Source: Octopus vulgaris (lineage: Eukaryota). Taken from it: 64,000 nt of DNA. Of the stretch, positions 21,356 to 58,201 are shown in pieces; positions within the stretch are counted from its first letter, which is position 1; every line of letters starts with the position of its first letter. The stretch lies in contig OX597833.1 of assembly GCA_951406725.2 (NCBI GenBank), positions 69,254,001 to 69,318,000 on the forward strand, written 5' to 3'. The translations under genes were made by a program, and so were the position numbers. The notes beneath the pieces were generated by a model. It saw nothing but the letters and a program-made list of their open reading frames with translations, made no database searches and was not told the DNA's origin.

Positions 21356-21440
21356 TAGATATCGACCAACGCTGGCACATCAAACCTAAAGCAAGAAAGC
21401 ATTCCCACCATGACCACATAGACGACTACACTATTGTAAA

Positions 21441-21862
21441 GTGATAAGTATGTTATCAACTTAATGTGACAGTCCCATAAAAGGGAAGAATACAACTGTT
21501 ATTTAGCCCTAGGAATCACTGTGTCCTGTTGGTCATGACACATTTCTTGTGTCCAAATGTTTTCAAAATAGAGACAAGTACCTCCACCCAGCAAAGCCAA
21601 CAACCAGAGACTAATTTCAGAGACATTGCTCCTCCGGACTGATGATGAGCAATGACTCTGAAACTAGTCTCTGGGTGCTGGCTTTGCTGGGTAGAGATGC
21701 TTATATGCACTTTGAAAACACAAGGACACTTTGAAAACACAAGGACACTTTGAAAACACAACGTGTCAAGTCCAACAGGAAATGGTGTTTCCTAGGGCTA
21801 AATAACAGTAGCATTCTTCCCTTTCATGGGACTCTCACATTAAGTTGACAACATAGCATCAC
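21441..21862. mobile_element. ~420-bp palindrome made of two inverted copies of a hammerhead-bearing (Penelope pLTR-like) module
   Basis: Left arm gtgat...ttaatgtgacagtcccataaaagggaagaat...gttatttagccctaggaa...acccagcaaagcca...ccagagacta.tttcagag is the reverse complement of the right arm. The centre is near 21635-21643. Confidence 0.9.
21634..21674 (+). ncRNA. Type I minimal hammerhead ribozyme motif
   Basis: ccgga-CTGATGA-t-gag(caatga)ctc-t-GAAAC-ta-GTC-tctgg: intact core, stem I CCGGA/UCUGG, stem II GAG/CUC, palindromic ACUAGU stem III and GUC cleavage triplet. Activity is untested. Confidence 0.75.
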
Positions 21863-21913
21863 TCTATCGTGCTGCTACTACATAAATCTCTCTGAGAGAT
21901 TTAGAAATGTATT

Positions 21914-22129
21914 ACTCTCACTCTTTTACTCTTTTACTTGTTTCAGTCATTTGACTGCGGCCATGCTGGAGCACCGCCTTTAGTCGAGCAAATCTACCCC
22001 GGGACTTATTCTTTGTAAGCCCATTACTTATTCTATCGGTCTCTTTTGCCGAACCGCTAGGTGACGGGGACGTAAACACACCAACATCTGTTGTCAAGCA
22101 ATGCTAGGAGGACAAACACAGACACACAA

Positions 22130-22221
<92 letters not shown>

Positions 22222-22379
22222 GACAGGCTTCTTTCAGTTTCCGTCTACCAAATCCACTCACAAGGCATTGGTCGGCCCGGGGCTATAGCAGAAGACACTT
22301 GCCCAAGATGCCATGCAGTGGGACTGAACCCGGAACCATGTGGTTGGTTAGCAAGCTACTTACCACACAGCCACTCCTG
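21914..22379 (-). mobile_element. SINE group B, full length, internal (TA)n/(TG)n expanded
   Basis: Near-identical to 61447-61839 outside the internal microsatellite. Confidence 0.93.
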
Positions 22380-32251: not shown

Positions 32252-33070
32252 ATTGTCTTTGCACAGCTTCTAACGCTAGAGATGCACTAAGGTGTCAGCT
32301 GTTCACTACCAGTGAACTAAGGTAACACAACCTTATTTTTCGAGGACCTTCCGGATAATTCGAGCGGTTACAAACAGTGCTCTATTCCGCAAGAGCTCCA
32401 CCCTTATTGCAGTCCGTATTTGTTCCATGTACTTCTCAAGATTCTTAATCGCTGTTCCCAGAGCTCCGACAAATACTGGTGCTACTACCACCTTTTTCAT
32501 CGACCACAACTGCTTAACCTCCCAAGCTAACCTGTTACATCTATCGACTTTTCTTTCTTATTGCATAAATTGTTGTCAGCTGGGTATTTTATATCTATGA
32601 TCTAACATTGTTTGCTTTTTTTCTCAATTAACGATATGTCTGGTTTCCTATTCTCTATGTTATGGTCACACTGAATCATAAAACCCCGTAAGATCTTCGC
32701 AAAATCATTTTCGATCATACCTCTGGGTTTGTGGCCGTACCACTTTTTTGCTCTGTCAAATCCATACTTGTTGCAAAGTGCCCAATGAATAATCCTTGCT
32801 ATATTGTCATAACGTATCTTACATTCTCTCTGGGCCAGTGGTATACATTGACTGGTAATGTGCCATACGGTTTCACCATTTTGTCCACAAATTCTGCGCT
32901 TATCTCTTTCTGATGTGTTGTCTATTTGATGTAATTGTTTCTTAATGTTTGCTCTTGGGCAGCACAGATCAAAGCCACCGATTCCAGTTTTAAATTACTT
33001 TTAGTCACCTACAACCATCTTTATTCTTTGTTTTGTCATTATGAAATTGTCCATGCATTCTTTTCTTACT
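32252..33070 (-). mobile_element. 5'-truncated R4/Dong-type LINE, same family as 57404-58201
   Basis: Minus strand reads KRMHGQF, ICAAQEQ, RICGQNGETVWHITSQC, DNIARIIHWALCNKYG, PD and LWSMKKVVVAPVFVGALG. The 3' UTR cttagttcactggtagtgaacagctg is followed by a degenerate (TAA)n. Confidence 0.88.
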
Positions 33071-42269: not shown

Positions 42270-42845
42270 TATTATCATATCGTTTCTACCTCTAGGAACA
42301 AAGCCCGAAATATTGCGGCAAGGATCAAGTCGATTACAGCGACCCCTGTGCACCACGAAAGGATGAATGTTAAAGTCGACCGCGGCGAAATTTGAACTCA
42401 GAGCATAAAGAGGAACGAATACCTATTTCTATTTCTTTACTACCCACAAGGGGCTAAACACAGAGGAGACAAACAAGGACAGACAAACGGATTAAGTCGA
42501 TTATATCGACCCCAGTGCGTAAGTGATACTTAATTTAGCGACCCCGAAAGGATGAAAGGCAAAGTCGACCTCGGCAGAATTTGAACTCAGAACATAAAGA
42601 GGGACGAAATCCGTATTTCGTTACTACCCACAAGGGCCAAACACAGAGGGAACAAACAAGGACAGAAAAATGGATTAAGTCGATTACATCGACCCCAGTG
42701 CGTAACTGGTACTTATTTAATCGATACCGAAAGGATGAAAGGCAAAGTCGAACTCGGCGGAATTTGAACTCAGAACGTAGCGACAGACGAAATACAACTA
42801 AGCATTTTGTACGGCACGCTAATAGTTCTACCAGCTCGCCGCCTT
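42270..42845 (-). mobile_element. Tandem trimer of SINE group A
   Basis: Three consecutive aaagtcgac..cggc..aatttgaactcag blocks (~42373, ~42561, ~42744). Only the last carries a complete head (ccagctcgccgcctt). Confidence 0.9.
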
Positions 42846-43399: not shown

Positions 43400-43775
43400 G
43401 ATGGATGGTGGAAGGAAGGAGGGAAGAACGTCTAAAGCAGCAGAGGATTCCAGGATTTGTAGTTCGATCCCTGATGCAGCAAAATTGTGGGAAGAACTTG
43501 CATTCCAAAAAGCGACAGGTAAATATATCTGTATATTGGTTTATAAAATGAGGACACGCAACCCTGGACTGACGACGGGCAAGACCCAGAAACGTTTATG
43601 TCTCCAGGCTGCTAGTTCTAGCTGGTGGGGGTGCTTGCCTCCCCTCTGCACATATAAGGACAGAGGAAATGTGTCAAAGCCGACAGGAAGCGTAGATGCT
43701 TCCTAGGGCTATATAACTGTGGTGTGATTCCCTTTACGGGCCTGTCACGTTATGTTGGACTTTATGCAACTACTC
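43400..43775 (+). mobile_element. Penelope-like 3' end/pLTR carrying a hammerhead, homologous to the arms of the 21441-21862 palindrome, ending in (CT)n(TA)n
   Basis: gtgtcaa..c.acaggaa...ttcctagggcta.ataac.gt.g...ttcccttt...ggg.ct.tcac.tta.gttg is shared with 21763-21850. Upstream FVVRSLMQQNCGKNLHSKKRQVNISVYW weakly resembles a GIY-YIG C-terminus. Confidence 0.7.
43563..43608 (+). ncRNA. Type I hammerhead ribozyme motif
   Basis: cctgga-CTGACGA-c-ggg(caaga)ccc-a-GAAAC-gtttat-GTC-tccagg: perfect 6-bp stem I, intact core and GUC triplet. Activity is untested. Confidence 0.8.
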
Positions 43776-43777
43776 TT

Positions 43778-43851
<74 letters not shown>

Positions 43852-57403: not shown

Positions 57404-58201
57404 GAATTGTCCTTGCACAGCTTCTAATTCTTGAGATGTTCTACGGTGCCAGCTGTTCACTACCAGTGAACTAAGGCAGCACCCCTCATTTTTCGAGCAC
57501 CATCCGGAGTATTCCAGCGGTTCCGATCAGTGCTGTTTTCTGTAAGTGCTCTACTTTTATTGGAGCCCCTGTTTGTTGCATGTACTTCACAAGATTTTTA
57601 CTCACTCTTCGCAAGGGCGCCGACAATTACTGGTGCAACTGCCACCTTTTTCGTGGCCCACAACTGCTCAAACCCCAAATCTAGCATGTCATATCTATCT
57701 ACATTTCTTTCTTCCTTATTGCATACACTGTTGTCAGCTGAGCCTGCTACATCGATGATCCAGCATCTTTTGCTTTCTTTCTCAATAAATACTATGTCTG
57801 GCTTCCAATCCTCTGTCTCAATCTCGCACTGAATCATAAAATCCCATAGTATCATTGCATTATCATTTTCGATGATACCTACGGGTTTAAGTTCGTACCA
57901 CTTTTTTGCTCTGTCAAGTCCATACTTGTTGCAAAGTTTCCAATGGACAATCCTTGCTATATTGTCATGACGTCTCTTATATTCTTTCCGAGCAACTGGC
58001 GTACATTGGCTGGTAATGTGCCATACGGTTTCACCATTTTGACCACAAATTCTGCACTTATCACTTTCTGATGTGTTATCTATTTTGTATTAGATGTATT
58101 TAGTTCTTAATGCTTGCTCTTGGGCAGCACAGGTTACAGCTGCCGTTTCTGCTTTTAAATCACTTTTAGTCATCTGTAGTAATCTGTTTTCTGTCTATCC
58201 A
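57404..58201 (-). mobile_element. 5'-truncated R4/Dong-type LINE inserted within a (TAA)n tract
   Basis: Minus strand reads AAQEQALRT..DKCRICGQNGETVWHITSQC (CCHC) ..EYKRRHDNIARIVHWKLC..ILWDFMIQ..KPDIVFIEKESKRCWIIDVA..VIVGAL. (ATT)n flanks it at 57330-57403 and 58202-58348. Confidence 0.92.

Follow-up and report, generated by a model that had tools for sequence, protein, structure and literature searches.

Dispersed hammerhead repeats of Octopus vulgaris as likely decayed copies of a protein-free retrozyme with Penelope-like insertion ends

Introduction

Two short motifs in the genome of Octopus vulgaris, read from the letters alone, were proposed to be hammerhead ribozymes (HHRs) heading a mobile module. 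Both lie in a stretch of 64,000 nucleotides (assembly GCA_951406725.2, contig OX597833.1, positions 69,254,001 to 69,318,000 of the forward strand), which is referred to here as the window. The locus raises the question of what kind of element carried the motifs into this DNA and by which enzyme it was inserted; for animal retrozymes, the return to DNA has so far been proposed and not demonstrated. We conclude that the two loci most probably represent decayed copies of a protein-free hammerhead retrozyme of about 350 nt, which Penelope-like reverse transcriptase (RT)/GIY-YIG enzymes would likely have inserted in trans.

Results

Anatomy of the window copies

The hammerhead motifs at 43563-43608 and 21634-21674 were found to be real, with letters and GUC ends (43602 and 21669) as originally read. 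A loose CTGAnGA..GAAA scan of both strands of the window returned six matches, and the two flagged ones were members of a repeat family. The first is a subfamily A copy on the plus strand. Its extent had been given as 43563-43775; the true unit is 355 nt long, and the copy spans about 43550-43776 (ends approximate), corresponding to unit positions ~128-355 of 355. The copy is thus 5'-truncated, being without the first ~125 nt of its unit, and it stops at what we call the short 3' end. Its mean identity to 11 other A copies was 90%. The type I hammerhead core (43563-43608, plus strand) contains the CUGACGA box at 43569-43575, C10.1 at 43576 and A11.1 at 43588, and the predicted cut lies after 43602, where GUC ends. 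Because helix III carries three substitutions relative to the family palindrome and its self-duplex is weak (-3.8 kcal/mol, versus -13.3 kcal/mol for the intact palindrome), this copy is probably dead. A (CT)n(TA)n microsatellite at 43773-43848, to which no strand is assigned, adjoins the 3' end of the copy, and we infer that this tract was its insertion target.

The 21.6-kb locus revealed a head-to-head inverted pair of subfamily B copies with unequal arms. The right arm (21628-21914, plus strand) has the long 3' end with a tail of ~55 nt and a private 19-bp tandem expansion at 21708-21761. The left inverted arm (21439-21634, minus strand) has the short 3' end and is truncated within the ribozyme, where the CUGAUGA box is gone. 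The type I core of the right arm (21633-21675, plus strand) contains the CUGAUGA box at 21639-21645, U10.1 at 21646 and U11.1 at 21659, with a predicted cut after 21669, the end of GUC. Both this core and the palindromic helix III are intact, but the CUAC bulge has changed where the two arms meet. The homology first noted downstream of the two ribozymes was confirmed, with 74% identity over 91 nt (plus arm) and 135 nt (inverted arm). Both window copies are old and partly decayed, and they are probably inactive.

Other repeats were observed in the window. An abundant repeat, which we take to be SINE-like, directly follows the long end of copy B at 21915-22320, and similar copies recur within the window. 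A 183-bp tandem repeat is present in 2.3 copies at 42352-42776, and two fragments at 32602-32994 and 57598-58089 (minus) resemble LINE C-terminal zinc-finger regions.

Repeat unit and subfamilies

Searches of the 2.8-Gb genome (227 contigs) with each window copy returned 2639 and 2219 first-look candidates, of which 40 were scored in each search; with 40 of 1319-2639 candidates scored per genome search, these figures are a lower-bound signal of a dispersed repeat and no copy numbers. Copies were dispersed over most large contigs. A structural pattern of 35 places matched the genome 1577 times, as opposed to 0 times for the reversed control, so the hammerhead motifs are not a product of chance.

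The repeat unit measured 340-363 nt, with no ORF between successive ribozymes: 355 nt in A (L011), about 340 nt in B, 362 nt in C and 352 nt in D. The 3' end of the unit continues into the sequence found upstream of the next ribozyme. Head-to-tail repeats were seen as A dimers (L011, L066, L075), as D dimers and as a C array of ~10 units with a period of 362 (L177), while B reached only ~1.3 units. The sequence-only reading had left open whether the flanks would link the ribozyme to an ORF or form ORF-less tandems, and successive ribozymes were found to adjoin without an intervening ORF.

Instead of the two subfamilies originally described, at least six (A-F) were seen; C, D, E and F surfaced in the flanks and in the pattern search. 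Over the segment from the ribozyme to the unit end, within-family identity was 0.92 for A, 0.93 for B, 0.99 for C, 0.99 for D, 0.87 for E and 0.89 for F, and identity between subfamilies was 0.50-0.83; copies of C were 99-100% identical and copies of D 97-99%. Units were homologous at 67% (A-B), 58% (A-C) and 59% (B-C), and D and B shared 63% over part of the unit only. GC content ranged from 39 to 47%. In a midpoint-rooted tree of 36 rows, B was nested within F (group support 95/95), A, E and F/B were grouped together less firmly (86/90), and long branches led to C and D. Within-family identity marks A and B (92-93%) as old waves and C and D (99%) as recent ones. Additional subfamilies beyond these six were noticed at L293, L295, L298, L276, L289-L291 and L306, including a D-like one with C·A at position 10.1·11.1, B/F intermediates and a C-like one at 86%.

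Ribozyme structure and covariation

All six subfamilies contained the core boxes CUGANGA / GAAA / NUH and three helices. Helix I comprises 6 bp and extends further as a long interrupted rod, helix II comprises 3-4 bp, and helix III consists of 6-10 self-complementary nucleotides. A CUAC bulge precedes helix I in five of the six subfamilies, and loop 2 contains CAA; we assume that bulge and loop resemble the loop-bulge contact of the Schistosoma hammerhead. As far as these predicted helices tell, the ribozyme is a canonical extended dimer-type type I hammerhead. The initial assignment to the minimal Penelope type did not survive, given the 6-bp, long-extended helix I, the CUAC bulge and the self-complementary helix III: the min-HHR of Penelope-like elements has a helix II of 7-8 bp, a helix I of 4-5 bp and an absent or tiny helix III, and none of these was found in the unit. 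A palindromic helix III has been described as the dimer-cleaving design of animal hammerheads (PMC4209133, PMC7229834).

A motif-anchored tally was used because helix III differs in length among subfamilies, and the ribozyme helices for this reason escaped RNAalifold when it was run on the MAFFT alignment. The tally comprised 48, 19, 31, 27, 5 and 9 distinct contexts for A to F, including at least two stray rows admitted by the classifier (L016 in C, L031 in D) and kept in the counts. By family majority, helix I was paired in 35 of 36 cells with two to three pair types per position, and helix II positions 2-4 were paired in 18 of 18 cells. At core pair 3-8, C has U-A where the other five subfamilies have C-G; this covariation is known from schistosome Penelope ribozymes (PMC4209133). 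Helix III was a perfect palindrome in five of six subfamilies, in four different sequences, and the D helix self-paired fully with G·U. The compensatory change in catalytic pair 3-8 and the four helix III palindromes argue for selection on the ribozyme fold, and the earlier claim of compensatory stem changes under structural selection is upheld, as helices I, II and III and pair 3-8 all covary between subfamilies. That both window motifs fold as type I hammerheads agrees with motif parsing and covariation, but the minimum-energy folds of the short motifs kept helix I only; because these lack the full hammerhead, the fold rests on parsing and covariation.

Whole units of A, B and D folded with z-scores of -7.8, -7.1 and -6.3, respectively, and with the same helix order. 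In circular folds, monomers were 58-66% paired, and C there matched the helix order of A, B and D. In an 18-row alignment, 85% of the cells of nine named helices were paired, compared with 29-43% when the helices were slid. This helix test comprised five measures, its structure being drawn from one aligned row and C and D being off-register in several helices; doubly changed cells numbered 45 versus 20.8 in shuffles (0/500), whereas pairs changed on both sides (12 versus 11.7, 282/500) and further pair types (31 versus 33.4, 465/500) did not exceed the shuffles.

Rfam hammerhead models gave no match at the gathering threshold in six loci and nothing at E<=10 on the two window motifs, and no hammerhead family was among the 150 of 389 matches listed from an Rfam scan of the window. 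The Rfam scans otherwise returned microsatellite/hairpin noise and one tRNA in L179.

Every C unit (for example L176:630-700) also contained a second hammerhead-like motif ~95 nt upstream of the main ribozyme, with U3-A8 boxes around a conserved hairpin followed by GAAAC and GUA. A, B and D share the hairpin but not the boxes; the motif may be a relic duplication or a chance occurrence.

Position 10.1·11.1

An unusual pair at the base of stem II had been noted in both window motifs and taken as a possible variant core architecture. When the motifs were aligned with C, the columns in question held G-C in that subfamily, which identified the pair as 10.1·11.1. In all 82 matches of A, with both places left free, we found C·A in 71, U-A in 8, A·A in 2, C·C in 1 and G-C in 0. 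In the first 100 of 195 matches of B, tallied by hand, U·U occurred in 65, A-U in 16, C·A in 8, G·U in 5 and U-A, C·U and U·C in 2 each, again with G-C in 0. D showed U·U in 26 of 27 and E showed U-A in 5 of 5. In C, the pair was G-C or G·U. G10.1-C11.1 was found only in C (28 of 31, one row being a misassigned match) and was absent in five of six subfamilies, in contrast to Penelope hammerheads, where it is described as "highly conserved" (PMC4209133).

These counts are best explained by a relaxed constraint on position 10.1·11.1, which changes between sub-lineages, with no new architecture. The pair itself is therefore present as noted, but it occupies a hypervariable position, and the suggestion of a variant core does not hold: C has G10.1-C11.1 in the same column, A and B each vary freely there, and U·U has been published before (PMC3088659, PMC7229834). 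A U·U at the base of helix II occurs in natural hammerheads, where it is described as the mismatch that is tolerated best (Perreault et al. 2011, PMC3088659), and the axolotl HHR_Amex2 carries the same mismatch (PMC7229834). Because such exceptions are published, a non-G-C pair at 10.1·11.1 does not exclude activity. No published description of C·A as a family-wide state was found in literature of incomplete coverage, and an earlier account is possible. The ribozyme of one resident Penelope-type family is readable with A·A at 10.1·11.1.

Insertion footprint

Among 106 distinct A-D loci, we counted 81 short, 72 long and 10 other 3' ends, placing 153 of 163 at two sites; the long site lies 45-60 nt beyond the short one. 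Head-to-head pairs combined one short and one long end in 48 of 57 cases. A tail together with inversion is a footprint typical of Penelope-like elements (PMC8557442), and the two-end pattern has been explained by an RT that starts at two internal sites and by nicks in both strands of AT-rich DNA (PMC11167929). The same two-end pattern was shown by two autonomous Penelope-type families of this genome, whose tails measured about 37 and 65 nt. The majority of A and B insertions were sub-dimer fragments with Penelope-type ends.

The 5' ends lay within 5 nt of the cut site in 1 of 38 arms of D, 2 of 45 of B and 1 of 70 of A, the A and B arms having been selected for long matches. As 5' ends do not cluster at the cut site, the template would have been either uncut or re-ligated. 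Ends adjoining microsatellites were counted in 0 of 45 cases in B, 31 of 68 in A, 27 of 32 in D and 17 of 18 in C; since B ends avoid microsatellites, unlike those of C and D, one helper may not explain all insertions.

Candidate helper enzymes

Three young Penelope-type families with many intact copies were found, encoding proteins of 781 aa (L141, L145), 717 aa (L142) and 727 aa (L190, L192). The 781-aa protein matched Pfam RVT_1 and GIY-YIG; the 717- and 727-aa proteins had no Pfam matches and were assigned to the Penelope type by weak similarity to the 781-aa protein and by structure. Presumably, the resident families are Neptune-like and Hydra-like. Each of the three has its own hammerhead variant (U3-A8; C4 with a long helix II; a 2-bp helix II with an A·A base), and L141 has an additional 359-aa ORF upstream.

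The unit showed no nucleotide similarity to the three full-length Penelope-type elements, and no homologous pseudo-LTR (pLTR) was found among these and 50 endonuclease-anchored loci. Penelope-type protein matches were present in 14 of 194 locus records (11 places), a sample of the genome in which no RT/GIY-YIG ORF was followed by a unit of the same age; three such loci that were examined closely had units nested in or near decayed elements. Four same-strand HHR pairs spaced 1.6-4.0 kb apart had no Penelope ORF between them. These pairs and a 5.3-kb gap in a C array were considered as ORF-bearing copies and rejected, as they represent Tx1-type insertions or segmental duplication. Of the two identities first offered for the family, pLTR or retrozyme-like, the ORF-less retrozyme holds, whereas no pLTR of an autonomous element was found. 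At one locus (L021:1290-1301; L143:4640-4830), an A copy stands head to head with a decayed, 5'-truncated Penelope-type RT fragment, a join arising either from co-insertion or from nested insertion.

Contigs assembled from four runs guessed to be RNA cover family C, and a neighbouring SINE-like repeat and a Penelope-type ORF were similarly deep in those runs; contigs of this kind are unable to show circles.

Discussion

A proposed cycle and its rivals

From the ORF-less unit, head-to-tail repeats, subfamilies, conserved fold with covarying helices, two 3' ends and head-to-head pairs, we infer the following cycle. A locus of several units would be transcribed, and two ribozymes, paired with each other through their self-complementary helix III, would cut after GUC and set a monomer free. 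We somewhat favour re-ligation of this monomer into a circle; otherwise, the uncut multimer would be the template. A Penelope-type protein would then nick both strands of AT-rich or (TA)n DNA, and cDNA would start at two fixed internal sites 45-60 nt apart, beside conserved hairpins. How far each cDNA continues past the ribozyme site would vary, and the products would be single arms, partial tandems or arms joined head to head. Two published results weigh against this cycle: the ribozyme proved dispensable for insertion in vitro (PMC11167929), and only one of nine frog retrozyme dimers showed cleavage (Li et al. 2026, 10.64898/2026.07.22.740005).

The Penelope-in-trans step is common to this cycle and to a rival in which cDNA is made exclusively from linear multimers that have not been cut, the ribozyme is carried along with weak or protein-assisted activity, and there is no circular RNA. 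We regard this rival as a serious possibility, though the less probable one. It would account for 5' ends that ignore the cut site and for A and B loci that reach only about two units; moreover, mismatched 10.1·11.1 pairs should slow cleavage (PMC3088659), and RNA that had not been processed was the dominant substrate in published work (PMC11167929). It sits less well with the compensatory change in pair 3-8 and the four helix III palindromes, and near-identical arrays of ~10 units with Penelope ends fit repeated copying of one short template.

We think it improbable that an autonomous Penelope-like element, with its ORF-bearing copies outside the sample, left these copies behind as truncated or solo pseudo-LTRs, since the tail passes straight into the next ribozyme with no ORF, none of the 14 protein-matching records has an ORF followed by a same-age unit, and the four spaced HHR pairs hold no Penelope ORF. 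The two-end and inverted-pair footprint is Penelope-like (PMC8557442), however, homology between retrozymes and pLTRs is published for Xenopus (10.64898/2026.07.22.740005), the scored candidates were few relative to those returned, and the L021 A copy is joined to an RT fragment. An element propagated at the DNA level, as a satellite or hairpin with a relic hammerhead and arrays grown by unequal crossover, would explain the tandem arrays and inverted arms that look like terminal inverted repeats; dispersed copies, a variable 5' end with two fixed 3' ends, unequal arms and RNA-level covariation make it scarcely credible. We consider it equally far-fetched that the associated Tx1 LINEs mobilise the unit as a SINE-like passenger. 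In favour of this reading, 23 of the 30 loci reached with the Tx1 3' end have the LINE next to the ribozyme; against it, the LINE lies inside the unit with a 12-17-bp unit duplication, the 3' ends of the unit share no LINE tail and show the Penelope pattern, and no LINE-tailed unit copies were seen.

Within the retrozyme reading that we prefer, a further-reaching version can be put forward, although we consider it rather doubtful. The family would be a self-standing retrozyme lineage, diversified to ~50% identity and with no parent pLTR left, whose single fold offers two start sites to any Penelope-type enzyme; helpers would have been switched (B avoids microsatellites, C and D use them), the RNA would be circular, almost any 10.1·11.1 pair would be tolerated, and a site-specific Tx1 hyperparasite would sit at what may be the transcription start.

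Comparison with known systems

At the level of sequence, the family has the features of animal non-LTR retrozymes. It bears the Penelope insertion footprint, but in the loci sampled it is not joined to the RT/GIY-YIG ORF of an autonomous Penelope-like element. The animal non-LTR retrozymes described by Cervera & de la Peña (2020, PMC7229834) are likewise ORF-less tandems of 170-400 nt (350-390 bp in mussel) with a type I hammerhead, a highly paired fold and a dimer-type helix III. Circular RNA and cleavage were shown there and are predictions for the octopus family; most A and B insertions here are sub-dimer fragments with Penelope-type ends, unlike those retrozymes, and, with units at 39-47% GC, A is slightly above the "<45%" given for them. 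The main text of that article names no cephalopod. The Penelope-derived retrozymes of Li, Clavereau and Pollet (2026, 10.64898/2026.07.22.740005) are similar in their co-occurrence with Penelope elements and their proposed mobilisation in trans; that work, as far as its available text goes, relies on pLTR homology in Xenopus and includes no mollusc, whereas the link here is an insertion footprint. Penelope-like elements share the tail, the inverted 5'-truncated arms and AT-rich targets (PMC4209133, PMC8557442, PMC11167929), and their pLTR hammerheads likewise have a palindromic helix III and, as reported from Cercyon elements, the U3-A8 variant (PMC4209133). In contrast to these elements, the octopus unit contains no RT/endonuclease ORF, its helix I is extended, and its tail measures 45-60 nt rather than 30-40 bp.

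No published description of this octopus or cephalopod family was found, and repeat libraries (Repbase/Dfam) may already contain it. In the text available, an octopus repeat annotation makes no mention of ribozymes (PMC13282606), and 235 Rfam hammerhead loci are given for a squid genome without context (PMC6962438). The present analysis contributes the A/B/E/F branch, which is the older one, the relation of that branch to C and D, and a series of substitutions at 10.1·11.1. Across the six subfamilies, natural substitutions are on offer both in helix III and at a hammerhead pair that is otherwise almost invariant. Because a fixed-end footprint, young near-identical C and D substrates and intact candidate enzymes reside in one genome, the reinsertion step of retrozymes is open to reconstitution by the published Penelope assay.

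A Tx1-type LINE at a fixed site in the unit

In A, B and C loci, insertions with an L1/Tx1-type ORF1 or its 3' end were found upstream of the core, at a distance of 18-32 nt, in the same orientation as the ribozyme and with 12-17-bp duplications of unit sequence where both ends were visible. As the LINE sits inside the unit flanked by these duplications, the retrozyme unit is the LINE target. A full-length Tx1-type LINE (L176:1090-6421) has an ORF1 with a zinc knuckle and an ORF2 with AP-endonuclease, RT and zf-RVT, and a second full-length copy (L304) showed an identical junction. When loci were sampled with the 3' end of an A-associated insertion, 23 of 30 passed directly into a ribozyme like that of A, B or D (22 of 29 if the query locus is left out). 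Tx1-type LINEs, and derivatives that have ORF1 only, were noted in L176, L304, L272:1863-3500, L270, L273, L002 and L274-L303. The window copies contain no Tx1-type insertion, and copy B is bounded by its own inverted arm.

Target-specific Tx1 LINEs with a fixed site in another repeat are known, such as Tx1L in Tx1D, Keno in U2 and Tx1-Mar (PMC4494074); here, the target differs in being a retrozyme. A literature search found no published account linking Tx1 elements to retrozymes. In the 5' flank of one Tx1-type element (L285), ~20 nt resemble the beginning of U1 snRNA but gave no Rfam match. At L288 and L299, a second Tx1-type copy is apparently nested at the same site.
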